64,000 bases of DNA, taken from positions 4,070 to 68,069 of IMG/VR virus record IMGVR_UViG_3300021960_000060, one strand, 5' to 3'. The DNA is from a virus. This document shows, piece by piece, positions 15,701-53,094 of the stretch. Under the pieces are notes generated by a model. That model did not search any database. It worked only from the letters and a program-made list of their open reading frames with translations, and was not told the origin of the DNA. Each line of letters begins with the position of its first letter. Within the stretch, counting starts at the first letter, position 1. Both the position numbers and the translations under genes were made by a program.

Positions 15701-18700
15701 GATGCTATTGAAATTGCTTGAGTCGATCCTGCCCCTGCATGGTGATAATTTAATTTTTCTCCTGTAACAAAGAAGTGATTTGGCAATTTAATCGAATTTG
15801 TATCTGTACTAACAAGAGTAGAACTACCATCAAAATATCTTTCAAAAATGGGGTATGTTTCATGAGTTAAATTAAATTTTCTCTTAATATCACTTTCTGT
15901 GCCAGTGTAGATACCCTCTCCAGTTTCAATAGTTCCATTATTAAATGGTATAACTGCAATATCACTATCAACATGATATTGGGCATTCATGTAAACTTTA
16001 ACCTGAACATTAATGCTTGGATTTGGAGTAAAAGTCAGTTCAACATTAGATCCATTTCTATTGGCATCAATCGTTCCTATATTTGATAAAGTTTCTACAT
16101 TAGCAAATTCTGTCAAATACGCATCAGTTCCATCATCAACAACAAGAACTTCAGACATCTGATATTCATTATTTGTTGTATCTGCAACTTGAACAATAAA
16201 ATATCCAGTGTCATAAGTATCTGAATAAGAACCAACAACTTGTGGAGTTGGGGATCCTGATGCGGAGATAGAAGTTGTTCTTGTTTCTAAGATTGCTCTA
16301 TCCATTGTAACAGTTCCTATTCCACTTGTAAGTGTGTTTGCAATAGAAACTTGTATTGAATTGATTGTAGCCGCAACTCCCACATTTGGAATAAAGTCCA
16401 GTTTAAAATTGGATCCATCAATATAAGCATAATATGTTCCAAAACCAGTTACAGTATATGGTGAAATATTTGTTGCGAGTTGTCCAAAATCCATATACTC
16501 AACTGTTGTTCCATTTGAAACAATATTGATTTCGTCAAATTGATACTCAGAATCATCTTTGGTTATCTCGACCAAAACTTTATGTGTAGAATATGTGGAT
16601 CCGAGAGAAACTATATTTGTAGTACTTCCAGTAGAAACAACAGTACTTGATGTACTTACTAAAGATTCTCCAATCACAGTACTTCCAACAGAAAGGATTG
16701 AATCATATAAATTGTATGCTAATACAGAAATATTAAAATCATTGATAGAATATTTTGTTGGATAGAAATTTAAAATTCCATCAGTTCCACTCATAGTATA
16801 ATCGAAACTTCCAATATCATACGTAGTACTAACCTTTCCATATTGGTTTAGATATGTCTGAGACTTGTCGTTAACCGCAGTTACAATCATTAATTGACGT
16901 TCGTCAAAATATCTCTTATCACTTACATAAGTAAACAGTTTCTGAGCCCTGATAAGAGTTTTATCAAAACGATATACTTCAACATAACGTGTTGGTCTTG
17001 GATTACTATTGAATGTTCCACTAAAATCATCAATATCTAATACTCTATTTCCAACAGATTGTGCATAGTCAATTAGAATTTTATTTTGGAAGATTATCTC
17101 ATTAGAAACAGTTCTTGAAGAAACTATTAAAGAATTTTCTTTGACCAAATCAAAATCATAAACACAATTTAAATCAACAACACCAATAATATCAGTAAGA
17201 ACTTCAACATTTGTGGATGTCAATATACCAACACCCATTGATTGTGATGAATTTGATTCAATCTGCAAATCTGAGAATTTCTTAAATCCAGCAGTATGAT
17301 TCATTGTACTTACAACATCGTCCCAAGAATCATAATCAATTTTTGATTTTAAACTATATGAAAAATTCTGATAATAAAATCCATCTTGCAATCTTTCAAG
17401 ATTTGAATTTAAGAATCCAATATTTTCCTCCCATCCATTTTTAACTATGGACGAAGGTGCCAAAATAGAAGAACTGGAAAATTCGGTTACTTTATTTGCA
17501 ATAGCTTGAGTTTTAGATGATTTTCCAAAAATAACTTCATTCTCAATAAATGTATCTTTTGATATTACTTTAAGATATTTGTTTTTAGAATCCCAATCAT
17601 CAATATAACCATTTTCAACAGAATTTGAATATACTTGTTCACCCTGTATAAAGTTATTTGCTTTTAGTTTGATGTCAAAAATAGGAAAATCTTTTTCTGG
17701 AATTATTCTTCCTGTAGAATTTCTAGAATCAAATGTTCCTGGAAAATCAGAACCAGATAACAAATCTCCCATGTTATAAGCAACAGTAGCACCAAGTCCA
17801 CCAAGATTTTGATCAACAGCGACAATGGTGAATAATGAATAGTTGTAATTGGATGAATTATATCCTTTAGAAGTTGATCCTGTCCCAGTGCTGATATTTT
17901 CAATCATCACTTTGTCATTAACTTTAATTGGGAAGGAATCTGCTGTACTAAATCCAACTGCAAGAGTAACAGTAACTTGATCAGTTGATTTATTATAACT
18001 TAAACTTGAAATTCCAACTCCATTTGGGTTTTCAACTGGAAGTATCTTAGGAAGTATGTCATTGATTCCATATGAATTTCTAACAATTTTAACTACACTG
18101 TCTCCTGCCTCATATCTAATATCAACTTCTGGTACAAGTTCATTAGTTTTTCCATCAAAAACTAAAAGTTTGGGGGAAACGGAATATCCCTTTCCAAAGG
18201 AAGAAATTCCAATAGATTCAAACGAAGACAGAGGAGATACTTTTATTATCTGGGGAAGTAATGTTGAAGGTCTTAAAGTATAGTCTGATGGGAAGTTGAA
18301 TCCAATATCATTAACTTTTGCATTTTTTGGTCTACCAATAGTTTCACTTAGTACTTCGACAATAGCATTGGACCCTACAGAAGAAGTTATCGTGGATATT
18401 CCAGGAAGATCGACGTATCCAATTCCTTTATTTGTTACTTTTACATCATAAATTGGACCTACTGCCGATAAAGAAGACGTATTGTAAGTTATTGAAGAAA
18501 TTCCTATCGAATATGATTCTCTCTCGGGAATATCCTTCAAAGTATATGTAAATGACTTGTCTCCATTTGAAACTATATTGTAGTTCCCACTATACTTACT
18601 GTTTTTAATTTCAATTTGGCCATAACCAATAAAAGTATTATCAACAATAACTTCCTGCTTTACTTTAGGTACATTACTATTAAATACAGGAACCAACTTA

Positions 18701-21700
18701 TAATATAATTTTTCTGGCAAATCTTTAGTTACTTTTAAAGTTAACTTGGCATCGCTAGAAACACCTACCTTTCCAGTTCTCTGTACATCAAACTTTTTAG
18801 TTAACTTTGTAGTATTGAATAAATTTGTAAACTCAGAATCTTCATATAGATTGAAATCAAATGCGGAATAATCAGTAAGCGAGAACTGATATGAAAGACT
18901 TGAATTCGTCAGATCAAAATTTATTGAAGAATCTTTATATGCAACTATTTTTGGATTGACTAATGAAATTTCTCCAGCAGATGAACTTGTGAGATCAACT
19001 GTTTTTGGACTTCTAGTTTGAGCATCAAATAAAGTTAAAGATAACCTAATATTATTCTTATCAAATACTACAACATAATAAGTTTTGTTGTCGTAGAGAC
19101 CACCAGAAGGAGTTGTAGCAGTATGTAAAACTTTTTGACCAGTCTCATACCCATGATCATTGATTTGAATGGTATTAGACTCTGTATTGACCCCAGAGAA
19201 GGATCTGGTGTTTGTAACTAAAACTCTATTAAAGTCATTATATTTGATTGTGTGTGTTGTAGTTAGTCCTGGATTTACATTTATATCTACATTGTCATTA
19301 TTTTGTAATCCATGAGTTTGTGCTGTTGCGACAGTTACAGTATTTCTGAAAACTTTTCCAGTTATTGGAGAATATCTAGTACTAAAACTATGATACGTGT
19401 TAGTTCCTATTCCAGTGAAGAAAAGAGTGCCTATACTACTTGTTGTCGTTGCAATTCCAACAAAAGTACCTGTTGTTCCCAAACCAACTCTTACTGTAGA
19501 AAGACCAATTAAATCATCCGAAACTTTTGCAACATATAGAATTGATTGATCCGAAAGAGTTACGCTAGTAGAAACTCCATTAGGTGATACTTCAATAACT
19601 GCCCCACCATTAGGTGAATATGTTAAAGCCTCTCCAGTAATAAATCCATGTGATGGTAAATATAAAGTTTTAGTTGGAACAAATATTTCAGATATACCTA
19701 TTCCGGGATTTGATATACCTAAAGTAACACCTATTCCTAATCCAGCAGTAGTTCCTAGACCTACAGTTTCTATTGGATTGAAATAAAGTTCTCTATTAAT
19801 TTTATATTGATAATCACTTCTAAATCCAGAATTAATAATTAATTTTCTTGGATTTTCATAAATTGTTTCTCCAATCGTATGTGATATTCCAACAGTACCA
19901 TCAATTTCACGTAAAACTCTAAGTCTTGATAAATTTTGATCTACGTTTAGAATTTTTAATTTTTCATCTGATATCTGAATAATATCATTCTCTCTAATAG
20001 AGTTGAAATTTAAATTTCCTGAAACATTAATGAAAGTAACTATTCCAGTATTTGAAATTGAATCAATACCTATATTAGACGATCCCAATCCAACTAGGAA
20101 CAGTGCATTGGAAGATATTCCTGCAGTATAAGAACCTTCTATTTTGGATGAAGATGTACTTAATCCTGCGACATTAATAATATCCTCATTTTTCAATTGA
20201 TGGGGGGAATCAAAATATAGTACATAGTCATTTTTTTGATTTCCTGGATAAAATTCTATATTACTAAAACTGGTTGAAGCTACGCTAATCGAGTTTACAT
20301 CTTTACCAAAAACTTTAGATACTTTTGCAAATGCTGCTTGCCCAATAATATTATTATTAGAATCTAAGTTGTCAAAAACTAATGTATCATTAACCCTATA
20401 TCCATCACCGCCAGTACTGATAGCAATTCTATCAATATTTCCAGAATAGGTACTTTTAATAGTAAATGTTTGATCAAGATTATTTGGTAAATCAATATAA
20501 TTGTAATATTTAATCCCACTACTGAGATTATAATATTCCATGTTTCTCATCCAATCAGTATCATTTAAATCAATTTGATCTTGATTTGAAGAACTCCTAA
20601 AATTAAATAGATTAGGTTTTGATCTAAAAGACTTTCCAATTAAGTATGGAAATTCTGGTCTTCTATATCCAACGAAATTTCCAGTAGAATCGACACTAAC
20701 TGGGTTTACTGTTGCAAAATATGCATATACCCCGTTAGGATAATCTGGGGTAATACAAAATCTTCCATTATTTTCATCGAGTACAGAATCGTCATCAATA
20801 TCAAAATGAGTGTAATCTTCAACAAAAAATCCTTCAGGGAAATACGATGTTTGAGGCCTGTTTGGTTTTAAATCAAGTTTATAACCAGACTTCATTAAGG
20901 TAATCGCTCCACCTTCCTTTTTTTGATAGGAATATGGTCCGTAAATTGGATTTCCATCATAAGCCCAACCAATTATTGGAGAGTGGTCTGATGAAATTTT
21001 TTCAATATTTCCAACCTTTTCAAGATCCTTTTTAAAATGTAAAAATTTTCCATCTTGATTAATTGGATAAATTTTTTCTCTCAGTTTTCTTGGAACATAT
21101 AAGTGGGTATATTCAAGTCCATAATCGACATTTGTTGATTGTGAAATAAATCCATCATCAGAACTAATGTTCTTTATATTTTTTTGAAAATTATTTACAA
21201 CCCAATTCTGAATACTTGCATTAGATATAAATCCTGATCCCGGATTTGAAACTATTAAAGTAGTGTCTGTCGAAGAATAATTTGTTCCTCCAGAAACTAC
21301 TTTAACTGACGTTATTTGTCCGTTTTCAATAATGGGCGTAAATTCTGCACCTATTCCATTTCCTGTTAGAATTAAATCGGGAACAGAAGTATAACCAGAT
21401 CCGACATTATTAATTAAAACTTCTACTATTTGACCATTAGATACAATTGGATTTAGTAAAGCACCAGTTCCTTGTTCGATAGAAATATCTGGTTGTCTTT
21501 GGTAATTTAAAGTTTGCTCAGATCCATAATTTGATCCTTTTGCACTTAAATGTACTGATTGAATTGATCCTCTGAAAATTGGTTGTATTTTGGCTCTAAA
21601 TTCTTCTAGTCCTATTGAAGAAATTCCTATATTTCCCAAAACTTGAACAGAAATTTCAGGATAATTGAAAGAATGGAGTCCTTCCCCATCAGATTCAATA

Positions 21701-24700
21701 TTCACATATTGCTTTGTTCTATAAAAGAATTCTCTATCTTCAGATGATCCTACTTGAGATAACATAAAATTATCATTATCTACTGCAGTAACATAATATT
21801 CAGTATTTGTTGTTATACCAGAAATAGGAGTCTCGTTATTGAAATATTTTATCAACTCTCCAGATTGATAATCATGATCTTCAATGTTGATATAATTTTT
21901 AGATGTAATAATTCCAACAGAGAAACAAGTTCTTTTTTTGTTCTCATATCCCACTCCAGGAGAAACTATACTTATGGAATCAAGTACTCTCTTTTTATTA
22001 ACGGATTCTAATGCATGATTTCCTATACCATAAGAAGTTAGAGTAACTGTATTAATTCCAGAAAGTGCGTCACCTAAGGTATTGTGCAATTTGACAGTAT
22101 TTGGGTCTTCTACCCCAACATGATACTTTGCGCCTGCTGAGAGACCTCCTACTGGTGTCTGAGCACTCGTTTGGTATATTACTTGCTCACCGTTTTTAAA
22201 CTTATGATAAGTTGAAAAACCTATACTTGACTGAGATGCTCCAATGGAAACTAAATTTGAAGCGATTTCTGAATTAAATGTTATAATATGAGATTCTAAC
22301 TTTGTATGTGCCTTTGCTTCTGCACCTACTCCATTTCCTCCAGTAATTGTTATTTCTGGATCCTCTTGGTAATCAAACCCACTATCGATTATATTAATTT
22401 TTTGCAGACTGCCGATAACAGCACAATGTGCAGTAACACCAATTCCAGATCGATCTGAAATATTTACATTTGGGGGAGAGATAATATCATAATTTGAACC
22501 AGGAGAAACTACATTGATTTCATTTATTTGTCCGTAATATAAAACATTTGAAGACTTATAATTTAAAATTTCTACGCCATTAACTAGGATTCCAGTTTTT
22601 CCAGGAACAGTCTCATATACTTCTCCACTAATTTCTGGGTTTTTAATTTCTCTTAATAAATTTTGAGATGTTAAAGTCTTCCCATAAAAATTATAAGGGC
22701 AAATTGTATTATTTGTCACTATAACTTGATTGACGAGAGTTACAAATATTGAATTGTCAATATCTGATCTACTTCTTGACAATTTTACTTGATTTGCATT
22801 AATTCTTTTAACAAAGTACAATCCTTCATCAAATAGTGATGTTCCGTTGGTAATATAACTTGTAGTAATTCCAGTAAATATGTTAGTGTCTGATACTGTT
22901 ACTTTTTCTGGAGCATAATAAATTTCATCTCCAGTATAGAATCCATGATCATTCAGAGATGTAATTGTAAATGTGTCACCAACAAAAGTTCCCGAAAAAG
23001 TAATTGTACCATCATTAACTTGTAAATTAGATCTATCAAAAAATGGCAGTGATGGTGAAGCAACTAAGGCTTTATCATCTTGAATATATGTGTTCTGTAC
23101 ATTTGAATTAAAAACACCTACACTTGAGAAATTATCTGCATTAGTCTTTGATAAAATTCTTTTTGCAGTGTATTTTTTTAAATCCGAAACACTAATTGCA
23201 GAAGTTAGATTAACTACAATTTTTTTGTCGCTTCTTACATCAGTAACAGTACCTTCAACTGTAATATTTGATTCATCAGTTACATTTATAGAATCATTTA
23301 TGTAAAAAATATGATTCTTATCAAGAGATAGTTCATAAATTCTATTTGTACTATTGACAACTGACACACTCTCAACTTCATATGAAGTTGCAATATTGAG
23401 AATCCAATTTTTAAATTTTATATCGTTACTTTTTTTTCCAAGACAATCAATATCTACACTATCCCCATTAGTATAAAAATAGGATTTTGGATCTAATTTT
23501 AAAGAGTTTATAACAGAAGAAATTCTTACAGAAACTTCCGTTCCAAATCCAGTAACAGCAGATGCATATGTGTTTATTCCAATATAGGAAGAATCTGCAA
23601 TATTGGAATTTACATTAGTACAATTTATAAATTGATTATTTGTTTTGGATGTATAAGATACGATTCCTGTAATAGAATTTCCATAGTCAACATACAACTC
23701 TCCTTCATATGGAAATCCAATTGTAGAGTCAACGTCTATTGTAGTTGTACCAGTGGAAACATTACCAATTACTTTTGTTTTGGGGTGTACTGAAAAATTA
23801 CCATAAATTGCACCACTATAATTAATATCTCTATTATATCCACCATCAATTTTTAATTTATAATAATCCGAATTATCATCTGTTGAAATTTTTTCAACAG
23901 ATGCTACTGGACCATATCCAGAACTAATATTATTATATTCTTTTTGGAAAAGAGTTAGATTTGTTAAATCATATGGATTTCCAGAAACACTTTCTACAAC
24001 AAAATCATTAGTAATTTTATAGTTGGAATCAGAAACTTTTAATAAGTGATCTCTGGGCCGTATAATTTCTACTTTTTCATTATAAAGTGCATTGAAAAGA
24101 ATTTGGAAAGATTTATCTGTTCCTTTACTGTTGTAAAAATCTTTAACTTGCTTTAAAAAAATATTTTCATTTAAATCTGATGTCAGATCTCTATTTTCAA
24201 ATCCTGGAGATAATTGTACTTTTGTCTTTAATAAAAACTTTTTAAGAAATAAATCGCTTAAATTGATTATTGTCGATCCAGAATCATGATTATCTGATTC
24301 AGTAGAAGAAAATTCTAATTCAGTACCTAAAGATGTAATTCCAGAAAAACCTCTTACACAACCAGTAAACGAATTTATGGTTTTTCCAGTGTAAGTGATA
24401 ATTTCATTATCAATTTGAAACAATCCATAAGAATTTGGATATTCGGTAGTTCCTATAGGGTTCTTGGATAAATCAACTTCAATAGTTGTATCGTCAAATT
24501 CAATACTTGAATACAAATACAAAGAGTCAGTCTCATGGGTTGACTCATCAAGTTTTATATAACTATCAATATTTTGAATAAGATCAATTGGTGCCCCTTT
24601 AAATTCTTGAGCTAGATAATATTGAGATAAAAACTCAGCAACTAATGGAAATTCCTCCCTCACATATGAAGGAAGTTGGTTATTGACTATGGTGGCGAAT

Positions 24701-24720
24701 TGGATTCTTTTATCTGACAT
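12703..24720 (-). CDS. gp7: Baseplate wedge initiator gp7-like giant protein (4005 aa)
   Basis: Between gp6 and gp8. FLSQYY...KQVKDFYNSKGT N-terminus, YHYH-like segment (HSPIIGWAYDGNPIYGPY), YYQNFSYSLKS...HTAGFKKF gp7 motif. Confidence 0.85.
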   Translation of the reverse strand: MSDKRIQFATIVNNQLPSYVREEFPLVAEFLSQYYLAQEFKGAPIDLIQNIDSYIKLDESTHETDSLYLYSSIEFDDTTIEVDLSKNPIGTTEYPNSYGLFQIDNEIITYTGKTINSFTGCVRGFSGITSLGTELEFSSTESDNHDSGSTIINLSDLFLKKFLLKTKVQLSPGFENRDLTSDLNENIFLKQVKDFYNSKGTDKSFQILFNALYNEKVEIIRPRDHLLKVSDSNYKITNDFVVESVSGNPYDLTNLTLFQKEYNNISSGYGPVASVEKISTDDNSDYYKLKIDGGYNRDINYSGAIYGNFSVHPKTKVIGNVSTGTTTIDVDSTIGFPYEGELYVDYGNSITGIVSYTSKTNNQFINCTNVNSNIADSSYIGINTYASAVTGFGTEVSVRISSVINSLKLDPKSYFYTNGDSVDIDCLGKKSNDIKFKNWILNIATSYEVESVSVVNSTNRIYELSLDKNHIFYINDSINVTDESNITVEGTVTDVRSDKKIVVNLTSAISVSDLKKYTAKRILSKTNADNFSSVGVFNSNVQNTYIQDDKALVASPSLPFFDRSNLQVNDGTITFSGTFVGDTFTITSLNDHGFYTGDEIYYAPEKVTVSDTNIFTGITTSYITNGTSLFDEGLYFVKRINANQVKLSRSRSDIDNSIFVTLVNQVIVTNNTICPYNFYGKTLTSQNLLREIKNPEISGEVYETVPGKTGILVNGVEILNYKSSNVLYYGQINEINVVSPGSNYDIISPPNVNISDRSGIGVTAHCAVIGSLQKINIIDSGFDYQEDPEITITGGNGVGAEAKAHTKLESHIITFNSEIASNLVSIGASQSSIGFSTYHKFKNGEQVIYQTSAQTPVGGLSAGAKYHVGVEDPNTVKLHNTLGDALSGINTVTLTSYGIGNHALESVNKKRVLDSISIVSPGVGYENKKRTCFSVGIITSKNYINIEDHDYQSGELIKYFNNETPISGITTNTEYYVTAVDNDNFMLSQVGSSEDREFFYRTKQYVNIESDGEGLHSFNYPEISVQVLGNIGISSIGLEEFRAKIQPIFRGSIQSVHLSAKGSNYGSEQTLNYQRQPDISIEQGTGALLNPIVSNGQIVEVLINNVGSGYTSVPDLILTGNGIGAEFTPIIENGQITSVKVVSGGTNYSSTDTTLIVSNPGSGFISNASIQNWVVNNFQKNIKNISSDDGFISQSTNVDYGLEYTHLYVPRKLREKIYPINQDGKFLHFKKDLEKVGNIEKISSDHSPIIGWAYDGNPIYGPYSYQKKEGGAITLMKSGYKLDLKPNRPQTSYFPEGFFVEDYTHFDIDDDSVLDENNGRFCITPDYPNGVYAYFATVNPVSVDSTGNFVGYRRPEFPYLIGKSFRSKPNLFNFRSSSNQDQIDLNDTDWMRNMEYYNLSSGIKYYNYIDLPNNLDQTFTIKSTYSGNIDRIAISTGGDGYRVNDTLVFDNLDSNNNIIGQAAFAKVSKVFGKDVNSISVASTSFSNIEFYPGNQKNDYVLYFDSPHQLKNEDIINVAGLSTSSSKIEGSYTAGISSNALFLVGLGSSNIGIDSISNTGIVTFINVSGNLNFNSIRENDIIQISDEKLKILNVDQNLSRLRVLREIDGTVGISHTIGETIYENPRKLIINSGFRSDYQYKINRELYFNPIETVGLGTTAGLGIGVTLGISNPGIGISEIFVPTKTLYLPSHGFITGEALTYSPNGGAVIEVSPNGVSTSVTLSDQSILYVAKVSDDLIGLSTVRVGLGTTGTFVGIATTTSSIGTLFFTGIGTNTYHSFSTRYSPITGKVFRNTVTVATAQTHGLQNNDNVDINVNPGLTTTHTIKYNDFNRVLVTNTRSFSGVNTESNTIQINDHGYETGQKVLHTATTPSGGLYDNKTYYVVVFDKNNIRLSLTLFDAQTRSPKTVDLTSSSAGEISLVNPKIVAYKDSSINFDLTNSSLSYQFSLTDYSAFDFNLYEDSEFTNLFNTTKLTKKFDVQRTGKVGVSSDAKLTLKVTKDLPEKLYYKLVPVFNSNVPKVKQEVIVDNTFIGYGQIEIKNSKYSGNYNIVSNGDKSFTYTLKDIPERESYSIGISSITYNTSSLSAVGPIYDVKVTNKGIGYVDLPGISTITSSVGSNAIVEVLSETIGRPKNAKVNDIGFNFPSDYTLRPSTLLPQIIKVSPLSSFESIGISSFGKGYSVSPKLLVFDGKTNELVPEVDIRYEAGDSVVKIVRNSYGINDILPKILPVENPNGVGISSLSYNKSTDQVTVTLAVGFSTADSFPIKVNDKVMIENISTGTGSTSKGYNSSNYNYSLFTIVAVDQNLGGLGATVAYNMGDLLSGSDFPGTFDSRNSTGRIIPEKDFPIFDIKLKANNFIQGEQVYSNSVENGYIDDWDSKNKYLKVISKDTFIENEVIFGKSSKTQAIANKVTEFSSSSILAPSSIVKNGWEENIGFLNSNLERLQDGFYYQNFSYSLKSKIDYDSWDDVVSTMNHTAGFKKFSDLQIESNSSQSMGVGILTSTNVEVLTDIIGVVDLNCVYDFDLVKENSLIVSSRTVSNEIIFQNKILIDYAQSVGNRVLDIDDFSGTFNSNPRPTRYVEVYRFDKTLIRAQKLFTYVSDKRYFDERQLMIVTAVNDKSQTYLNQYGKVSTTYDIGSFDYTMSGTDGILNFYPTKYSINDFNISVLAYNLYDSILSVGSTVIGESLVSTSSTVVSTGSTTNIVSLGSTYSTHKVLVEITKDDSEYQFDEINIVSNGTTVEYMDFGQLATNISPYTVTGFGTYYAYIDGSNFKLDFIPNVGVAATINSIQVSIANTLTSGIGTVTMDRAILETRTTSISASGSPTPQVVGSYSDTYDTGYFIVQVADTTNNEYQMSEVLVVDDGTDAYLTEFANVETLSNIGTIDANRNGSNVELTFTPNPSINVQVKVYMNAQYHVDSDIAVIPFNNGTIETGEGIYTGTESDIKRKFNLTHETYPIFERYFDGSSTLVSTDTNSIKLPNHFFVTGEKLNYHHAGAGSTQAISIASTSIPGIGITDKLPNELYAVKVNENTLKLASTAENALKATPQTLSISSVGIGTSHRFVANNQNAKVIITIDNIIQSPIVPTSLTTTLASNVNALDNLIVFSGITSFFGGDLIKIDNEIMKIEGVGIGTTNAIRVRRPWLGTNLGNYSIGSTITKIQGNYNIVDNEINFAAAPFGNIPIGSTTNPPDERDWTGISTSSSFHGRSFMRSGIPNTTEETYYKNYIFDDVSEQFNGTKSDFTLKDSGLDVTGIKTENAIILINDIFQGPGITNDYTLEESTGITTVSFTGTATSSPYDANSTNLPLGGVIISVGSFEGFGYQPLVAAGGTATVSSAGTISAISIGNSGSGYRSGIQTTVNVSVATSATDLLDVEIIGTASVTDGHVVSIAITNPGTGYTTSNPPYVIIDDPLSYSDIPLYYTSSSTGIGTEAKIDIVVGQGSSIIDFSIRNTGYGYGEGNVLTIPIGGSVGIPTSSGFNEFKLTIQEVFNDKFNGWSVGELQILDNIEDLFDNETLVFPLKIAQEFIAINAERGSNINIEDTLLIFVNDILQIPNEGYIFNGGSLITFTEPPKIGDTCKLIFYRGSGSVDVKETDILETVKIGDNLTIGYDSYIGQQASLQENPRTVFDINSTDFVTTNPYYGPGNTNDENLIRPVTWCRQTEDKIINGKEVSKDRNLYEPQIYPFAYAIQSVGIGSTIISVDNIRPFFNQINENNVSLSFQNNITFISQDIISGAAATAVVSLGGTISSIVISDGGTGYGTIPTVSIQNPVGMGTTARADANASITAGVVTSITITGPGTGYTSTSVPLVLISPPSFEKESNSVDIYEGDSGIIVGITTTNVGVSTGLILDLYIPENSFFRDSTITGFTTISGIQTGYYISVYNSNVGNGVTSLDSTNSEVGIGTTCLDNIYEVISVSTGQTSSPGIGLTYVSKVVVSVTDYNGLTGIGNSNYYGNYSWGRITLESRSKSKEYNAYTSSGSAGITTGTIVQRTSPLKYLNYI

Positions 24721-27991: not shown

Positions 27992-28012
27992 TATGAATTA
28001 ATATATCTTCAC

Positions 28013-28147
28013 CTATTTACCCTGACCACGATATCTCTTCTTTTTGCTATTACGTGATGTTGCTGAAATTAATGTGTTGACTGATCTTCCCTGACGAGTC
28101 TTCTTCGGCTTTCCGGGTACATAATTACCACCTTTCATCATTGCCAT
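28013..28147 (-). CDS. 44-aa basic protein (KKTRQG...KRYRGQG family)
   Basis: Missed by the ORF track: MAMMKGGNYVPGKPKKTRQGRSVNTLISATSRNSKKKRYRGQGK; GGAG RBS upstream. Confidence 0.7.
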   Translation of the reverse strand: MAMMKGGNYVPGKPKKTRQGRSVNTLISATSRNSKKKRYRGQGK

Positions 28148-28150
28148 AAC

Positions 28151-28306
28151 CTAATTCTCCTTTACTTTGATTTCAATTAAACTTGGATCTATAGATCCTC
28201 CCGAGTAAAAACGCTCCGAAAGATCTTGCATCTTCTCACTACATTCTTCTATAGTGAGATCTTTATGCATAATATTATTCTGATAAACAATATTATAATA
28301 TTTCAT
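28151..28306 (-). CDS. 51-aa hypothetical protein
   Basis: MKYYNIVYQNNIMHKDLTIEECSEKMQDLSERFYSGGSIDPSLIEIKVKEN; start overlaps the upstream stop (TAATG). Confidence 0.65.
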   Translation of the reverse strand: MKYYNIVYQNNIMHKDLTIEECSEKMQDLSERFYSGGSIDPSLIEIKVKEN

Positions 28307-29076
28307 TAGATGACACGAGTCTTTTCATGACCCACACGAATTCTTGGATCACACCAAATATCATACCCTGCTTCAATAGCATCTAAACAGAATGATACAT
28401 CCTCTCCACACATATCTTGTACAGCACCAGATTCAAATACTTGCATCTTTGGTGCAAACCATGGATACTCTAAATTCTCAAAGACTCCCTTCTTAATCAA
28501 TACCCATCCAAAACCTGTGTAATCAACAGTGAATGGTTTCTTTCTTTTCTGAATGGAATCAACAGTTTCGTGATTCATTACTCCACCATTCTTCCTGAAA
28601 TCATCCTCCTCTAACCAGTGTGCAACAGAGGTGGTTCTTCCATCCTCAGTGGCATACCATCCACCAACTACTTCCTTCTCATTGCCTTCGGCATCTAATG
28701 CAAGATCACATAATTGCCAAAACTTCTGTGTGTCAAAGACAATATCACTGTCAATCCACAGTTGATAATCATACTCTAATTTACCATCCCATGGAATTTG
28801 CTTTGGTCCCCTTAATACATTCGCACCTAATACCTTACATCGTGCAAAGTTAACCATTGATGAATAATCTTGACTGATCTGAATACTCATCCCATTTTGT
28901 ACAAGATCAAAGCACAGTTGTACAAAGTTCTTTAGAAATGTAAATGAACATCCCCTACCAGGAAGACAAAATACAATCCTCTTTCCTTTCATTCTTTCTT
29001 TGATTGCATCAATGTCCCATTCAGGTTCTTGTCCCTTCTTTGGTGGTGCAGCTTTAACAGTAAATCCTTTTGCCAT
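28306..29076 (-). CDS. GT-A fold glycosyltransferase-like protein
   Basis: WIDSD (DxD), TGFGWVLIK and GEDVSFC motifs. Confidence 0.75.
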   Translation of the reverse strand: MAKGFTVKAAPPKKGQEPEWDIDAIKERMKGKRIVFCLPGRGCSFTFLKNFVQLCFDLVQNGMSIQISQDYSSMVNFARCKVLGANVLRGPKQIPWDGKLEYDYQLWIDSDIVFDTQKFWQLCDLALDAEGNEKEVVGGWYATEDGRTTSVAHWLEEDDFRKNGGVMNHETVDSIQKRKKPFTVDYTGFGWVLIKKGVFENLEYPWFAPKMQVFESGAVQDMCGEDVSFCLDAIEAGYDIWCDPRIRVGHEKTRVI

Positions 29077-29124
29077 TTGATTAATTAGGTTTCAGTTCAA
29101 TTCTATCAGTGTATGTATAGTATG

Positions 29125-29322
29125 TCAATAAGAATGCTCTTCTGACATATGTTGGGTTATTTCTACTTCCTCATACGTTAAATCCTCAAAAGTATAATCA
29201 GTCTCCATAAGACCAACCATCCCTTTGAGGGTATTCCATACTTTATTAAATTGTCTCTGACTTAAATTATAATATAAACATTCCTTCTTTGCATATATGT
29301 GATAAACCTTTGTAGGTGTCAT
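29125..29322 (-). CDS. Hypothetical protein
   Basis: 65-aa ORF, YHIYAK...LKGMVGLM. Confidence 0.65.
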   Translation of the reverse strand: MTPTKVYHIYAKKECLYYNLSQRQFNKVWNTLKGMVGLMETDYTFEDLTYEEVEITQHMSEEHSY

Positions 29323-29351
29323 TTTATCTCCGGTAATTTTTTTTGTCTTTT

Positions 29352-29501
29352 CTATTGTATAATCGCATTATATATCAGTGCTATCAAAATCCCTAGGGGG
29401 ACTAATACAATTTTACCCATTGTCTTTGGATACCTGATTATCCAGCCTGCGAAAATAACCTTCCAGAAATTCCAATATGGTGCGCGTTTTTTTATCTTCA
29501 A
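29352..29501 (-). CDS. 49-aa membrane peptide
   Basis: TTG start: (M)KIKKRAPYWNFWKVIFAGWIIRYPKTMGKIVLVPLGILIALIYNAIIQ; late promoter TATAAATA at 29541-29548. Confidence 0.55.
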   Translation of the reverse strand: MKIKKRAPYWNFWKVIFAGWIIRYPKTMGKIVLVPLGILIALIYNAIIQ

Positions 29502-29632
29502 AGGATTAATTATATTCTCGGAAAATTTTTTTGGTTTCGATATTTATAGATCGATTTGTCACCTCTGTAGGTTAGGGTAGTATGCGATTTTTATATACAC
29601 AACGCCCCCCATAAAACACTGCTGTTAAATGT

Positions 29633-29661
29633 ATAATAGCACGAAGGTTAACTGTTGTCAA
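29633..29661 (-). promoter_or_regulatory. sigma70-type promoter
   Basis: TTGACA-17 nt-TATTAT. Confidence 0.65.
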
Positions 29662-29685
29662 CCCCCATGCTACTAAGTATCACAT

Positions 29686-29820
29686 TCAGAACAGAATCTC
29701 TGCAATCTCATTCACATCTTGCTCACTGGCAATATCAGCAGCAATAACATCTAGGATCGATAAGATATCGTTGCCAGTGTTACCAACCTTGAGCATACCA
29801 AGTGCAGTTTCAAGAGACAT
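29686..29820 (-). CDS. 44-aa acidic peptide A (paralog of 30792-30884)
   Basis: Missed by the ORF track: MSLETALGMLKVGNTGNDILSILDVIAADIASEQDVNEIAEILF; shares GNDILxILxxI and leader elements with peptide B. Confidence 0.75.
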   Translation of the reverse strand: MSLETALGMLKVGNTGNDILSILDVIAADIASEQDVNEIAEILF

Positions 29821-29848
29821 AATAAAGAAGAAAAGTGTTAGTTAGTGA

Positions 29849-29876
29849 TGGTGAGTTTAATGACATCACCAGGTCA
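29849..29876 (-). ncRNA. Compact H-type pseudoknot in the leader of peptide A
   Basis: UGAC-C-UGGUGA-U-GUCA-UUAAAC-UCACCA: S1 UGAC/GUCA, S2 UGGUGA/UCACCA. Confidence 0.65.
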
Positions 29877-29892
29877 AAGTAGTCGCGCTAGA

Positions 29893-30108
29893 TCAATACT
29901 GGTCGCTGCGACGACCTGACAGACAGCAGCGATATTGTGTGTCTGTTGCTTGTAACTTAGTGCGTCTCTTATTACCTTGAAGACGAACACCAAACAATGA
30001 CCTTTTAGGTCCTCTTTGAGGATTTAAACGTGTCACCTTAACATCGCCACGAATTTCTGCGATGAGCAGATCTAACGGAGTTGATGCTGCAATGTCAGAA
30101 ATAGTCAT
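29893..30108 (-). CDS. 71-aa basic early protein
   Basis: ORF directly downstream of repeat-promoter copy 1. Confidence 0.65.
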   Translation of the reverse strand: MTISDIAASTPLDLLIAEIRGDVKVTRLNPQRGPKRSLFGVRLQGNKRRTKLQATDTQYRCCLSGRRSDQY

Positions 30109-30135
30109 GGGGTGAATCGTTCTCTCACTACTAGT

Positions 30136-30154
30136 ACGCTTTAGAGGTGAGTAA
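30136..30154 (-). promoter_or_regulatory. Repeated promoter-like element, copy 1 (consensus TTACTCACCTYTAAASTGT)
   Basis: TTACTCACCTCTAAAGCGT; one of 8 copies, all intergenic and upstream of minus-strand genes. Confidence 0.8.
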
Positions 30155-30171
30155 TATTATTCTTACACAGA

Positions 30172-30348
30172 TTACCAACGATCAGGATTACTTAGATCCT
30201 CTACGTAGCTGTCAATCACCTTCTCAGATCCTTCTAATGTGAATAACTCTTCCCAGTTAATCTGATGCGGATCAAAATCATTCATAACCTCTAAATCCAA
30301 CGTGATGCGATAACGTTGTTTCTGTGCCTGACTGATAGCGACTGACAT
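30172..30348 (-). CDS. 58-aa acidic early protein
   Basis: Missed by the ORF track: MSVAISQAQKQRYRITLDLEVMNDFDPHQINWEELFTLEGSEKVIDSYVEDLSNPDRW; has its own sigma70 promoter. Confidence 0.75.
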   Translation of the reverse strand: MSVAISQAQKQRYRITLDLEVMNDFDPHQINWEELFTLEGSEKVIDSYVEDLSNPDRW

Positions 30349-30377
30349 GATTGGTGTCCTGTGGTGATGACTTTACT

Positions 30378-30406
30378 ACTATAGAATGCCTGAGGAATAT
30401 TGTCAA
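30378..30406 (-). promoter_or_regulatory. sigma70 promoter, predicted TSS about 30371
   Basis: TTGACA-17 nt-TATAGT; a late TATAAATA also lies at 30419-30426. Confidence 0.75.
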
Positions 30407-30481
30407 TCTTCTAAGGGTTATTTATAAAAAAGTCTTATATTTTACAAATGTCAAGTCCCGGAAATACTTATGACCGATCGG

Positions 30482-30510
30482 TTGACATTTCTGCGCGTGT
30501 GTGATAGAGT
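30482..30510 (+). promoter_or_regulatory. Divergent sigma70 promoter facing a non-coding region
   Basis: TTGACA-17 nt-TAGAGT; the longest ATG ORF seen downstream before 30760 is about 15 codons. Confidence 0.6.
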
Positions 30511-30527
30511 GCTCGCTTAGATAACAA

Positions 30528-30611
30528 CAACTAGAGACATTTAATTAATGATCTAAATGATCAACTAGAGACATTTAAATCATCACAAGTACAAGACTCA
30601 GAGACATCAAA
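30528..30611 (+). repeat. Three direct repeats at a 33-34 bp period (CAACTAGAGACATTTAA x2 plus one degenerate copy)
   Basis: Exact 17-mers at 30528-30544 and 30562-30578; GACTCAGAGACATCAAA at 30595-30611. Confidence 0.85.
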
Positions 30612-30736
30612 ACCACTCAATATGAGAGTAATGGATACTATCCTGAGAACGTTCTCAATAATAGTATAAAAAAGCAAAGTATATTTATAATACCATTTAA
30701 AAACGTTTTTTAATGAATAAGTGTATTAATTGATAC

Positions 30737-30761
30737 AAAAAAGAGAGGAATGACCCTCTCT
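30737..30761 (-). terminator. Rho-independent terminator downstream of peptide B
   Basis: AGAGAGG-GTCATT-CCTCTCT followed by a T-run on the minus strand. Confidence 0.75.
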
Positions 30762-30791
30762 ATGTCTTATTCAGTTATATGGACTAAGTGA

Positions 30792-30884
30792 TCAATAGAG
30801 GGCCTCAATTGCTTCAAGGATGAGAAGAATATCATTACCATTCTGTGCAGATTCAAGAGCAAGGAAGAGATCAGAATTAGACAT
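30792..30884 (-). CDS. 30-aa acidic peptide B (paralog of 29686-29820)
   Basis: Missed by the ORF track: MSNSDLFLALESAQNGNDILLILEAIEALY; followed by a terminator. Confidence 0.7.
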   Translation of the reverse strand: MSNSDLFLALESAQNGNDILLILEAIEALY

Positions 30885-30911
30885 TTAAAAGTGTTAGTTA
30901 GTGGGTGTATT

Positions 30912-30939
30912 CGGTGGGTTTAGAGTCATCACCAGGACT
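30912..30939 (-). ncRNA. Compact H-type pseudoknot in the leader of peptide B
   Basis: AGUC-C-UGGUGA-U-GACU-CUAAAC-CCACCG; S1 covaries with copy 1 (UGAC/GUCA to AGUC/GACU). Confidence 0.65.
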
Positions 30940-30946
30940 ATAGGAT

Positions 30947-31024
30947 CTAGAGTATAATTAAGATCAAAACGATTGAATAGAAACGAGCATAGATTGATGC
31001 CCACTCTTTCTTAGTCTTAACCAT
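30947..31024 (-). CDS. 25-aa putative membrane micropeptide
   Basis: MVKTKKEWASIYARFYSIVLILIIL; start overlaps the stop of the upstream ORF. Confidence 0.45.
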   Translation of the reverse strand: MVKTKKEWASIYARFYSIVLILIIL

Positions 31025-31371
31025 CATGAGAAGATATAACCATTAGTGAATGTTTCGTTCTTGTATACATTCTTTCCATTAATTGCACCAACGAAGAGTC
31101 TTACATACCATTGAAAGTTCTTCTGAAATACTCCTTCTCCTCTCTCACAGAACTCAGAACAGAGTGCATTAAGTCTGGATTTAGTTGTATTAGACTGATA
31201 ACCACCATCATAGATTGTCATCGAATCATCAGAAACTTCTGCAATCTTGTTACCATGAAGACGAACGATTGAGATTCCTGTCTCTTCATTAAAGTGAACT
31301 GTTGTATTAGCATTAGACCAGTTTTGATTTGACTGGATTGCTTGGCACATTTGGGATTCGATTTTACGCAT
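31024..31371 (-). CDS. Conserved cyanophage early hypothetical protein
   Basis: MRKIESQM...LHGNKIA...DGGYQSNTTKSRLNAL...VFQKNFQWY. Confidence 0.8.
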   Translation of the reverse strand: MRKIESQMCQAIQSNQNWSNANTTVHFNEETGISIVRLHGNKIAEVSDDSMTIYDGGYQSNTTKSRLNALCSEFCERGEGVFQKNFQWYVRLFVGAINGKNVYKNETFTNGYIFS

Positions 31372-31413
31372 GAGTTGTGAAGAGTTGATGTTAATGAAGA
31401 GTGTAGTTTTTAC

Positions 31414-31614
31414 TTAACCATGAAATCCTAACTCCTCCCAATCCCATTTTACTCCATTTGGTGAACATTCAGGAAGGTTCATAGATTTACAATAGTTAAC
31501 TGCTGCTTCTTGAGTTGAGAAGATTTTAGCAGCACTATTGCCTCTTAACATAATTGTTTCACGAATGCTGTCAGAGTTAGTGAAGAAAGGGAAAGTGATA
31601 AAAGCAGAAGTCAT
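31414..31614 (-). CDS. Hypothetical early protein
   Basis: Follows repeat-promoter copy 2. Confidence 0.65.
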   Translation of the reverse strand: MTSAFITFPFFTNSDSIRETIMLRGNSAAKIFSTQEAAVNYCKSMNLPECSPNGVKWDWEELGFHG

Positions 31615-31646
31615 AATCGGGGTTGAGTGGTGTCTATACTATAGGT

Positions 31647-31665
31647 ACAGTTTAGAGGTGAGTAA
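31647..31665 (-). promoter_or_regulatory. Repeated promoter-like element, copy 2
   Basis: TTACTCACCTCTAAACTGT. Confidence 0.8.
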
Positions 31666-31687
31666 CTTTATTTTTATCTAATTCGTT

Positions 31688-31813
31688 TTATTGCATTATA
31701 TTTTCAATTGAATCTTTTCTCTCTTCTAATAGTTCAATCATATTACTATCTAATATATCGATCATGAGATTAGCACCAAGAATAGTAAACAATGCAAGAA
31801 AGAAGATTCTCAT
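31688..31813 (-). CDS. 41-aa protein with N-terminal hydrophobic segment
   Basis: MRIFFLALFTILGANLMIDILDSNMIELLEERKDSIENIMQ; ATGA overlap with the upstream ORF. Confidence 0.55.
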   Translation of the reverse strand: MRIFFLALFTILGANLMIDILDSNMIELLEERKDSIENIMQ

Positions 31814-31983
31814 GAGATGACAGGAATAGAGGTGATTGATTTAACCTTACGTGTATCAAGTTCACGTGCTTCATGATAGATCTTACAATTCAGTTTATAT
31901 GAATTGATTGGTTTAATGTTGCTCTTGCGATTAAACTTAGCAACAGATCCATCTTTAAACTTAACCTCAATATTGTATAACAT
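31810..31983 (-). CDS. Hypothetical protein (probable start MLYNIEV)
   Basis: 3' part of track ORF 31810-32073; ATG immediately after the upstream stop. Confidence 0.55.
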   Translation of the reverse strand: MLYNIEVKFKDGSVAKFNRKSNIKPINSYKLNCKIYHEARELDTRKVKSITSIPVIS

Positions 31984-31984
31984 A

Positions 31985-32206
31985 TCAATCAGTACCACCA
32001 AACATTTGATCAAAGAGTGACTGTCCTGATCGTTCATCATTATCCATTCTTTGTGACTCGCGAAGATTAGCAAGAAAGTTGATTTGTGCCTGAATATCTT
32101 CTACTTCGTTCTGTAACTTCTCCTTCCTATAGTTCAAATCCATGATAGACTTGTTGATCTCGATTGTGTTCATTTTGTGAATAGTGAGAGAATTGAGTGT
32201 GTTCAT
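31985..32206 (-). CDS. Coiled-coil hypothetical protein
   Basis: 73-aa ORF ending QSLFDQMFGG. Confidence 0.65.
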   Translation of the reverse strand: MNTLNSLTIHKMNTIEINKSIMDLNYRKEKLQNEVEDIQAQINFLANLRESQRMDNDERSGQSLFDQMFGGTD

Positions 32207-32209
32207 ATC

Positions 32210-32380
32210 TTATTTTGTTGCAGCAAACAGATGAAAGATTTTGCTCTGAATATCATTGGCGATCTCAGATTCAGTATCGCCATAATCAGAAAAATCACTC
32301 ATTGCGCTGCTGATTGCTTCCCATTCTGTTTCAGTAAAGAATTCGGAGATAGAGCGAAGATCAGTGGTTGTTTTGTTCAT
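32210..32380 (-). CDS. 56-aa acidic protein, probably leaderless
   Basis: MNKTTTDLRSISEFFTETEWEAISSAMSDFSDYGDTESEIANDIQSKIFHLFAATK; ATG 6 nt after the -10 of TTGCAA-17-AATAAT. Confidence 0.65.
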   Translation of the reverse strand: MNKTTTDLRSISEFFTETEWEAISSAMSDFSDYGDTESEIANDIQSKIFHLFAATK

Positions 32381-32450
32381 GTGTTAATTATTGCAGATTT
32401 GAGGGTGGATTGCAACCGGTCTTGTGCCGGTTCTCCAACTGGTTTTCTGA

Positions 32451-32717
32451 TCAGAGTTCTTCCATCATTTCGTCAAGTTCAACTAAATTAAGATTAACAT
32501 CATCCCATTTTACTCCATCTAAAGTTGTTGCTCCTTCTTCAAAATTACGGCGAACAAAATCTTGATAAGAATAAGAACGACGTGCTAAGTTATACAAACC
32601 CTCATCATTACCAATCCATAAAGCAACATTCCAAGTCTCATAATTTTCCCAACCGTTGTAAGTTGTGTCTTCCATTGTGGTTTGAAAAGTTGAGTTAGTC
32701 ATGGTTGCTGTGTTCAT
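32451..32717 (-). CDS. Conserved phage hypothetical protein (YNGWxNYETWNVALW family)
   Basis: Motif YNGWENYETWNVALWIGNDEGLY. Confidence 0.8.
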   Translation of the reverse strand: MNTATMTNSTFQTTMEDTTYNGWENYETWNVALWIGNDEGLYNLARRSYSYQDFVRRNFEEGATTLDGVKWDDVNLNLVELDEMMEEL

Positions 32718-32748
32718 TTTGAGTTTGTTTGGTCTCTATACTATGGAT

Positions 32749-32767
32749 ACAGTTTAGAGGTGAGTAA
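32749..32767 (-). promoter_or_regulatory. Repeated promoter-like element, copy 3
   Basis: TTACTCACCTCTAAACTGT. Confidence 0.8.
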
Positions 32768-32784
32768 TATTATTCTTATCTAAT

Positions 32785-32970
32785 TTACATACCATTCATA
32801 TACTCATGTAGTTCCTGAAGATATTGCTCTTCAGTCTCAAATGAACGGCCATGAATCACACCTGGAAACGTTTTCTTTTGAAACATTGTTGATGCGACTT
32901 CGCAGTCTTGTTGATCATAACCCATCTCGACTAGGTTGTTCACGTATGGATTGTTTGAAGGTGTTCTCAT
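32785..32970 (-). CDS. Hypothetical early protein
   Basis: ATG 11 nt after the TAAAGT of repeat copy 4. Confidence 0.7.
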   Translation of the reverse strand: MRTPSNNPYVNNLVEMGYDQQDCEVASTMFQKKTFPGVIHGRSFETEEQYLQELHEYMNGM

Positions 32971-32979
32971 ACTACAGGG

Positions 32980-32998
32980 ACACTTTAGAGGTGAGTAA
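32980..32998 (-). promoter_or_regulatory. Repeated promoter-like element, copy 4
   Basis: TTACTCACCTCTAAAGTGT. Confidence 0.8.
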
Positions 32999-33007
32999 CT
33001 TTATTCT

Positions 33008-48306: not shown

Positions 48307-48335
48307 TTGACATCTTGACTGTATCTTGTTAGTAT
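48307..48335 (+). promoter_or_regulatory. sigma70 promoter for the plus-strand gene pair
   Basis: TTGACA-17 nt-TAGTAT. Confidence 0.7.
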
Positions 48336-48359: not shown

Positions 48360-49094
48360 ATGATCACTGTATATTGGTCTCCTTGGTATGCAGATAAGAA
48401 GACATATGATGAAAACTATCTAACACACTATGGATTAGATAATGTTTATGTTGATCTTCTGGTGCATAAAGATCAATCAAATGCTAGAGATAACTTCTTT
48501 AATTGCTATGCATTCAAAGGTGCAATGAAGAATATGTATTGTCTCAGGAACCCTTACTCTGTCGATCTTCGATATGAGAATGGTAAATGTATTTCTAATG
48601 CACCACCAAAAGCAATTTATGATCTTGCAATGACATCACAAGTCAAAGCTCCTTCAATGCAGGATGCACTAACGATTAACTATGGTGTCAGTTGGATATT
48701 CTTTGCTGATAAACCTCTACACATACAAACAATGCACCCATATATGCATGGGACAGAGGCAAGTAAGACATCATTTTATGTCCCTGGATCTTTTGACATT
48801 TCTAAATGGTTTCGACCAGTTGAAACTGCATGTCAGTTATTTCCTGGTGAGAATACATTTAAGTCTGATGAAGGTGATCCACTAATCTATGCAAACTTCC
48901 TGACTGATGAGAAGATTCAATTCAAGAAGTTTTATCTAACTCAAGACATCATTGATCATTCAATGAGTTGTATGAAACTCAAATACTTCAAGTCATTTAA
49001 GGCACTAAATTACTTGTATAAGATATTTGTTCAGAGTAAACTGAGAAATAAAATCCTGACTGATATCAAGAAAAATGTTATTGAGGATGAATGA
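48360..49094 (+). CDS. Hypothetical protein, beta-rich (possible dUTPase-like fold)
   Basis: 244 aa; FFNCYAF, WIFF, VPGSFDISKWFRP, GDPLIY. Confidence 0.7.
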   Translation: MITVYWSPWYADKKTYDENYLTHYGLDNVYVDLLVHKDQSNARDNFFNCYAFKGAMKNMYCLRNPYSVDLRYENGKCISNAPPKAIYDLAMTSQVKAPSMQDALTINYGVSWIFFADKPLHIQTMHPYMHGTEASKTSFYVPGSFDISKWFRPVETACQLFPGENTFKSDEGDPLIYANFLTDEKIQFKKFYLTQDIIDHSMSCMKLKYFKSFKALNYLYKIFVQSKLRNKILTDIKKNVIEDE

Positions 49095-52425: not shown

Positions 52426-53094
52426 CTATGTAGTTGATATTCCTAAATCAGTTCTCATGCGTACTATCATATCACTTTGATGACCATCAGTATCTTTGAG
52501 ATATTGTAGATAATCACTAAAATCTTCATCTACATGATATCTAAATGTACTTTGAGTGACTCCATCAGGGAATTCTACGGGAGTACTAAATGTTACAGTC
52601 TTAGCAGTATTATCAACTGTTGGACTTCCATTTTCCAGTGCATTGATCGTAACTTTTAAGTTGGCATTTGCTGCAGTCCAATGGTCATACAATTCTTGAG
52701 TTGATTCAATATCTGCATATAAAGATGCAGAAGCTACTGGTCTTGGAAGATCTGTTAAATTGACAGTTTGATCAGGAACTTCAGCAGGAGTTGGTGCTGA
52801 ACCTGCAGCTGCATCAATCTGTGCTTGCAATTCTGCTAATTTTCTTGCCTCTTCTTTTTCTCTTGCCTCCTTATGTGGTTCCTCTTGAGCATGAATCAAA
52901 TCACGAATAATGGAATAATTATCTGAGTCAATATTGATGAATTGATTATTATAGTAATAATCCCCAATTGCAGGTGATCCAGAAGATATTTCAGTCCACT
53001 CTAGACCACTAGTTCTTACGAAGTTTTCATCTGTTGAGATATCAATCACAACATTAATTCCATAGATATTTTGTTTTGTTCTTATGTAACTCAT
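52426..53094 (-). CDS. Hypothetical protein (possible fibre assembly/chaperone)
   Basis: 222 aa directly downstream of the Gly/Cys-rich protein. Confidence 0.6.
   Translation of the reverse strand: MSYIRTKQNIYGINVVIDISTDENFVRTSGLEWTEISSGSPAIGDYYYNNQFINIDSDNYSIIRDLIHAQEEPHKEAREKEEARKLAELQAQIDAAAGSAPTPAEVPDQTVNLTDLPRPVASASLYADIESTQELYDHWTAANANLKVTINALENGSPTVDNTAKTVTFSTPVEFPDGVTQSTFRYHVDEDFSDYLQYLKDTDGHQSDMIVRMRTDLGISTT

Follow-up and report, generated by a model that had tools for sequence, protein, structure and literature searches.

The origins oriF and oriG of bacteriophage T4, located in uvsY and gene 34, respectively, are described as a promoter combined with an A+T-rich unwinding element, with a transcript that forms a priming R-loop and is proposed to be the primer (PMC3016281). 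The same account presents T4 oriE with an early-mode promoter and evenly spaced direct repeats of 12 nt, which are kept in the syntenic regions of relatives. For cyanobacterial oriC, TTTTCCACA is called the cyanobacterial DnaA-box motif (PMC4674748). The DNA analysed here, 64,000 nt of the IMG/VR virus record IMGVR_UViG_3300021960_000060 (positions 4,070 to 68,069), is referred to as the window; it makes up most of the 68-kb viral record and is, judging from its sequence, a fragment of a T4-like cyanomyovirus. The closest named relatives are the Synechococcus myoviruses Bellamy, S-SM2 and S-SCSM2R (Kyanoviridae). Between two minus-strand genes of the window lies a gene-free gap of about 440 nt (30349-30791) with an early promoter, phased repeats and an AT-rich tract, and this module was compared with the origins above. 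To our knowledge, the replication start sites of T4-like cyanophages have not been mapped, and these phages are, as far as we know, without the T4 middle-promoter machinery that oriF and oriG need. The median intergenic length in S-PM2d was reported to be 6 bp (PMC5931967).

The module is a non-coding element common to many T4-like cyanomyoviruses, of which the window carries one version; a single copy was detected in the record of the window and in the matching isolate genomes. It may represent a transcription-primed, iteron-bearing origin, or an origin-control module, of the T4 kind. This reading is tentatively preferred, at somewhat below an even chance, because the element is single-copy and lies in a gene-free gap, with a selected early promoter, spaced repeats, an AT tract and, in relatives, DnaA boxes. 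According to it, transcription from a strong host-type early promoter would run opposite to every neighbouring gene, first through a conserved promoter-proximal unit present in one to four copies, then across a swappable cassette of protein-binding repeats and finally into the tract with the highest A+T content of the region. As at T4 oriF and oriG, the AT tract would be opened by early transcription, and leading-strand synthesis would be primed by an RNA-DNA hybrid; the evenly spaced repeats would have the role of iterons that has been proposed for those of T4 oriE. The cassette is a host DnaA-box array in about four of ten related loci and the triplicated unit with two palindromes in the window. 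The original prediction for this locus had named iteron-like origin sites beside an AT-rich tract only as its alternative explanation; the added evidence favours that alternative, still short of proof.

The plus-strand promoter of the original prediction was found at its place and is supported by comparative evidence across related loci. It is an early promoter of the sigma-70 type with an extended -10 element, TTGACA-17-TGnTAGAGT (30482-30510, plus strand), in which TTGACA at 30482-30487 is followed by a 17-nt spacer, TG at 30502-30503 and TAGAGT at 30505-30510; transcription would start at about 30516-30518. The sequence into which it fires is non-coding, as had been predicted, since no plus-strand open reading frame (ORF) of at least 25 aa is present in 30474-31082. 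Related loci were retrieved with two search patterns. With the first one, built from the sequences of four isolates with the hexamers included, the promoter and the first ~45 transcribed bases were found to be conserved in 70 viral contigs. The second pattern left out the hexamers except for the final base of the -10, with which it began. It retrieved 48 unique upstream sequences, every one of which contained TTGAC[A/T]-17/18-TAnnnT, and 45 of them a perfect TTGACA. In 8 of the 48 loci the whole promoter was displaced by 3 nt from the transcribed core with the hexamer spacing kept. The upstream alignment has a variable spacer, with the hexamers, TG and GC.CGCTTAGATCAC nearly invariant. From this pattern across loci it is concluded that the plus-strand promoter is functional and under selection.

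Only one other plus-strand site of equal quality (TTGACA-17-TGnTAnnnT) was detected in the window, at 48307-48335, and it directly precedes the only two plus-strand genes of the window (48360-49094 and 49091-49819). Just 5' of the -35 hexamer, most marine loci carry a conserved block, TGTCAATCC-CTGG-AAAAACTTATC, together with a G/C-rich run (30441-30481 in the window); it may be an UP element, a second promoter or a binding site.

The conservation continues into the transcribed region. The discriminator and the promoter-proximal unit (GCTCGCTTAGATAAC...ACATTTAA; 30511-30544, plus strand) correspond to copy 1 of the repeat. In alignment A1, comprising 60 sequences, invariant columns begin with TGC.CGCTTAGA and reach as far as the TT of CATTT; part of them had been fixed by the search pattern itself. 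The words ACATTTAA and CATTTAA occur at chance frequency window-wide. As originally described, three phased copies begin at 30524, 30558 and 30591, with a spacing of 34 and 33 nt. A 17-mer is exact at 30528-30544 and 30562-30578. The second of these (CAACTAGAGACATTTAA) belongs to copy 2 (30558-30578, plus strand), the variable part of which lies in the loop between the two arms (30548-30559 and 30572-30583) of an AT-rich inverted repeat. Copy 3 (30591-30611, plus strand) is degenerate, with AGAGACAT at 30600-30607 and 76% identity over the aligned 17 nt.

The 33/34-nt period of the promoter-proximal unit recurs in 11 of the 56 non-redundant related loci, whereas among the shuffled controls only 1 of 56 gave a 12-of-14 match at any lag. 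The later copies were located by this lag analysis, the matrix of the full 25-nt unit being too strict to find them. Within a locus, the copies share the unit variant of that lineage and resemble each other more than the copies of other loci. The phased triplet is thus real. Tandem Repeats Finder called no array at a score of at least 30 because the spacers between the copies differ; the copies are phased and dispersed, not head-to-tail. The unit number varies from 1 to 4 among close relatives, and the relative L056 equals the window with one extra 21-nt unit copy. Beyond about +45 no alignment across lineages is possible, but the loci follow a common plan, in which extra unit copies are followed by a variable cassette, an AT-rich block and the terminator hairpin of the upstream gene. 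The early promoter and the evenly spaced repeats, in a T4-type phage, are the features shared with T4 oriE. The likeness is one of layout; the repeats of oriE measure 12 nt, those of the module have a 17-nt core on a 33/34-nt period.

The original prediction assigned to these repeats the role of a multi-seed antisense RNA, pairing with the mRNA starts of two small-peptide genes and controlling their translation. The words in question are present: the 8-mer AGAGACAT recurs at 29813-29820, at the start of peptide A on the minus strand, and the 10-mer AGACATTTAA at 30879-30888, at the start of peptide B. The window does show complementarity, over 8 nt for peptide A and over 11 nt for peptide B, and in the close relatives L056, L070 and L027 it likewise extends over 10-11 nt. 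However, both words are at chance frequency in the window. The 8-mer has 6 matches versus 3.8 expected, with 19 of 100 shuffles reaching 6, and the 10-mer, with one mismatch allowed, has 14 versus 14.8 expected. As neither word is over-represented, a match to one or two gene starts is unremarkable and could be due to chance.

The relatives were compared in 26 non-redundant locus-peptide pairs by determining the longest word that the first 140 nt of the transcribed region have in common, on the plus strand, with the 28 nt surrounding the peptide start codon. The own-locus mean, 6.46 nt, equalled the cross-locus mean of 6.22 nt. With the window, L056 and L070 set aside, the own-locus mean of the 21 pairs was 5.7 nt; L027 alone reached 10 nt, and 20 of the 21 pairs outside the clade of the window shared at most 7 nt. 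The unit with ACATTTAA is also kept although the peptide starts differ or no peptide gene lies within 1.5 kb, the latter in 41 of 74 loci (a member of the peptide family is present in the other 33). The original prediction had itself named tracking of the peptide starts in related phages as the test of the antisense RNA. Such tracking was not found, and the start-region complementarity expected of a small RNA is not kept in relatives; pairing of the repeats with the peptide mRNAs is therefore considered very improbable.

The repeats could also be read on the minus strand, where each copy starts with ATG and ends with TAA just before the next one. The result would be three mini-ORFs of 7-10 codons, each starting with ATGTCTCT, serving as leader peptides in a late transcript. 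A T4-type late promoter motif, TATAAATA, is indeed found on the minus strand at 30682-30689, where the original prediction had placed it as a possible counter-promoter, within the region transcribed from the plus-strand promoter; the leader transcript would begin from it at 30689. In 48 of the 60 aligned relatives, translation of the first unit gives a hydrophobic ORF of 7 codons, of the type M(C/S)(S/L)G(L/V)V(I/V). In 12 of the 60, however, the unit has an internal stop or no ATG, the entropy by codon position is nearly flat (0.69, 0.77, 0.97), and the late motif is kept in only 14 of 55 non-redundant loci. In addition, the second and third copies of other lineages lie, as judged by eye, in other frames. 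The mini-ORF explanation was rejected on the broken ORFs and the flat codon-position variability and is regarded as hardly credible.

A different role for the plus-strand RNA would be that of an early trans-acting non-coding RNA. Its conserved 5' end and one to four ...ACAUUUAA units would be the working part, for instance a decoy or sponge for an RNA-binding protein or a nuclease, and the copy number and unit sequence would evolve with the partner. Such an RNA would account for the strong conservation of the promoter, for the conservation of the first ~45 transcribed bases beyond the needs of a promoter alone, for the difference in copy number (1-4) between close relatives, and for the resemblance of the copies within rather than between loci. 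The plus-strand RNA folds better than its shuffles (z -3.75), and the fold places copy 2 in the loop of a hairpin. RNA-library contigs of relatives, from four runs, partly cover 30474-30541 and 30644-30949; these contigs are strandless, reveal no start or end and may come from DNA carry-over, and the shares obtained from public RNA runs were small only (0.05-0.11).

On the other side, the minus strand folds even better (z -5.13). As both strands exceed their shuffles, the fold z-scores do not separate the strands, and the better folding of the minus strand indicates that the signal comes from the palindromes. No Rfam match at E ≤1 was obtained for 28000-33000 on either strand (Rfam 15). The outer stems predicted for the window are not kept, by eye, in Bellamy and L034, and the failure to align beyond about +45 between lineages also speaks against a trans-acting RNA. 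The plus strand appears to have no canonical terminator: the hairpin at 30742-30761 has a weak plus-strand tail, and none of 22 hairpins of relatives is followed on the plus strand by at least 6 T in 9 nt. The DnaA boxes of relatives, which are DNA motifs, lie on both sides of the promoter, and the repeat field of S-PM2 is outside the transcript. A trans-acting RNA is considered unlikely on balance. The S-PM2 antisense RNA CfrI is likewise non-coding, from a T4-like cyanophage and on the strand opposite to its neighbours; it is a cis-antisense RNA overlapping psbA and homing-endonuclease genes (PMC5931967), whereas the module lies elsewhere and does not overlap any gene. Scans for tRNA and tmRNA gave no match. 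ToxI-like RNAs of type III toxin-antitoxin systems consist of repeats arranged head-to-tail, with the toxin gene downstream on that strand. The module does not have these features, as there is no array called by Tandem Repeats Finder, no downstream plus-strand ORF and no Rfam match.

Downstream of the repeats, two short palindromes, GGATACTATCC and GAGAACGTTCTC, occupy 30633-30656 and form the variable cassette of this lineage. They are followed by an AT-rich tract (30655-30742, 85% A+T), detected in a scan with 60-nt windows, which is a candidate unwinding element. It is one of three such regions in the 64 kb and belongs to the top 0.02% of the 60-nt windows. Located 140-225 nt downstream of the expected start of transcription, it contains the conserved palindrome CATTTAAAAACGTTTTTTAATG (30694-30715), and in relatives the AT block is conserved in the form ACATTTAAAAA-CC/CG-TTTTTTAAT. 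The combination of a promoter, present in 48 of 48 loci, with a downstream A+T-rich element is that of T4 oriF and oriG. The T4 promoters are MotA-dependent middle promoters inside genes, whereas the module has a host sigma-70-type early promoter in a dedicated gene-free gap and would form its R-loop there. The tract ends at the intrinsic terminator of the upstream minus-strand peptide gene, a hairpin with a T-run (30761-30742, minus strand). An RNA from the plus strand could also stop at this hairpin, though only weakly. In relatives the hairpin is likewise oriented as a minus-strand terminator, with an A-run preceding it on the plus strand in 15 of 22 cases.

The gap also contains signals pointing towards the 58-aa gene on its other side. 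The early promoter of this gene, TTGACA-17-TATAGT (30406-30378, minus strand), is conserved in the upstream alignment, and a second late motif TATAAATA at -63 (30426-30419, minus strand) is retained by 31 of 55 loci. Across the entire window, TATAAATA was counted 4 times versus 8.4 expected; every site is on the minus (gene) strand, and three fall within 29.5-30.7 kb. The two early promoters are divergent and 76 nt apart, and with the two late motifs in the same gap the module could be a transcription-control hub. The repeats, palindromes and optional DnaA boxes would then be operators timing the divergent early and late promoters. The plus-strand promoter would act by interference or insulate against read-through from the upstream operon, and the DnaA boxes would serve as a facultative regulatory input or as a sink of host DnaA. 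The position of copy 1 at about +4 to +30, which is a classic operator position, the plus-strand promoter facing the terminator of the upstream gene, and the optional boxes (20 of 54 loci) with varying positions relative to the promoter are in agreement with such a hub. It leaves unexplained, however, why the promoter fires into about 250 nt of conserved, extremely AT-rich non-coding DNA. Interference alone would need no conserved initial transcribed sequence, and no gene of a DNA-binding regulator is recognisable beside the module (phrog_12516, Kyano_Gp96). The hub is held to be about as unlikely as the trans-acting RNA.

The association with host DnaA boxes was determined in the relatives. 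Perfect boxes (TTTTCCACA, with the variant TTATCCACA) within -250 to +400 of the promoter numbered 71 in 34,838 nt (2.04/kb), and 26 were counted in 449,227 nt elsewhere in the same loci (0.058/kb), which gives an approximately 35-fold enrichment near the promoter. At least two boxes were present in 20 of 54 loci, some of which had seven upstream of the promoter, and the positions varied on both sides of it. Where present, the 2-7 perfect TTTTCCACA boxes are direct and inverted and lie near the AT-rich block. A perfect-box cluster was detected in three of eight complete genomes, one cluster in each. In Syn9, two of the four perfect boxes are at the homologous locus, 16 nt apart and followed by a third box with one mismatch, and in S-SM2 two of three boxes are at the module locus. 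In S-PM2, three of eight boxes lie within 34 nt, beside a relic of the element, an AT block and dense direct and inverted repeats.

The loci L070 and L067 have flanks, i.e. the promoter and the AT block, that are near-identical to those of the window (alignment A2), and carry 2-3 DnaA boxes at the place taken in the window by the third unit and the two palindromes (GGATACTATCC, GAGAACGTTCTC). Very close relatives thus exchange the middle of the module. With respect to the known systems, boxes near an AT-rich block are shared by cyanobacterial oriC and the relatives of the module. Unlike oriC (PMC4674748), the gap of the window is box-less, there is no dnaN or dnaA neighbour, and the boxes are optional in the family. 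T4 oriE, in the account cited above, is not described with any host DnaA boxes. The layout of the module resembles that of the plasmid and phage-plasmid origins RK2 oriV and P1 oriR. Those origins combine iterons, DnaA boxes and an AT-rich tract; the module differs from them in having no recognisable Rep-type initiator neighbour and in belonging to a lytic T4-like phage.

Several features of other loci were observed in the same comparison. In S-PM2, an AT-rich field of AAATCTCA-type and AAGATTTCTTAAGATTT-type repeats, direct and inverted, extends over 1160-1310 of L081 (S-PM2 ~19460-19610) and looks like a private iteron array. For the same S-PM2 segment (AJ630128.1, 18300-20300; L081), six tRNA features are annotated, two of them over the DnaA-box cluster; ARAGORN finds none, and in this version of the record the features are apparently shifted from their true coordinates. 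The downstream cassette of L010, L016, L041 and L071 consists of at least four palindromes of the type TATGTG-N3-CACATA, which recur beyond a minus-strand gene, as if its own operator sites flanked that gene. In Syn9, the annotation places gp86 and gp87 over the homologous non-coding module and its DnaA boxes (L080 1338-1658; Syn9 52477-52797); both may be spurious ORF calls.

Several observations weigh against an origin. Plus-strand transcription, binding of a protein to the repeats, the R-loop and the initiation of replication are steps that we infer. The GC skew stays below zero over the whole window and is level at 29-35 kb, without changing sign at the module; since it reflects the strand of the genes, it is uninformative. 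The presumed transcribed strand is rich in A and C (A 102, T 64, C 31, G 27), and R-loops elsewhere are favoured by G-rich RNA. The 33/34-nt period corresponds to about 3.2 helical turns, which is not an exact multiple. Profile R1 found the core in only one of five classic isolates (Syn9, E 0.0017), with no match at E ≤1 in S-PM2, P-SSM2, S-RSM4 and P-SSM4, and the versions in Syn9 and S-PM2 are without a good -10 hexamer at the expected place.

The DnaA boxes have their own exceptions. No box was present in 29 of the 54 related loci, and no box cluster in Bellamy, S-SCSM2R, P-SSM2, S-RSM4 and P-SSM4, i.e. in five of the eight complete genomes. The gap of the window contains no TTWTNCACA box, the sole match, at -244, being inside the 58-aa gene. 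Since the boxes are missing in the window and in many relatives, DnaA cannot be essential to the module. If the gap is simply the largest one to tolerate insertions, it could gather non-coding motifs of any function. The role of the iterons is undefined even in T4 oriE (PMC3016281).

The 58-aa gene flanking the gap (30348-30172, minus strand) belongs to phrog_12516, and another neighbour to Kyano_Gp96. Both families are unassigned in function, and no initiator or regulator is recognisable among these neighbours. The gap is bordered on its other side by the 30-aa gene of peptide B (30884-30792, minus strand). Peptide A (29686-29820, minus strand) and peptide B are paralogous (E 9e-05). Their family comprises peptides of 30-58 aa with the core NG-(N/S/T)-(D/E)-(I/L)-L-x-I-L-(D/E) and gave no Pfam or PHROG match. 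Nearly all long ORFs of the window are on the minus strand; upstream of the region there are ORFs of 2487 and 4005 aa (3658-11121 and 12703-24720, both on the minus strand). GATC is over-represented in the window, with 317 sites versus 259 expected and none of 100 shuffles reaching 317. Clustering of this Dam site in the gap was considered and rejected, as 3 sites were counted versus ~2.2 expected from the density of the window.

In the titles and opening parts of abstracts covered by a literature search, neither a cyanophage module of this kind with host DnaA boxes nor a cyanophage origin or early non-coding RNA at the module locus was described. The element is absent from the passages of Sullivan et al. 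(2010) on intergenic regions, origins and promoters, and the paper nowhere refers to DnaA.

The finding has consequences for both annotation and experiment. Small ORF calls across the gap, as in the case of gp86 and gp87 of Syn9, should be treated with caution. A single conserved module with an early promoter, repeats and an AT tract provides a precise target for origin mapping in these phages, and the cassette swaps between near-identical phages constitute a natural experiment. The module could also be used to find out if the host initiator is sensed or used by a lytic phage. It is possible, and at present somewhat doubtful, that T4-like cyanophages share one dedicated transcription-primed origin, which some lineages would have equipped with a DnaA-box cassette; others, among them that of the window, would have replaced the boxes by private iterons derived from the multiplied unit. 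If this is true, the module would be the first mapped origin of the Kyanoviridae and the first origin of a T4-type phage that recruits the host DnaA.

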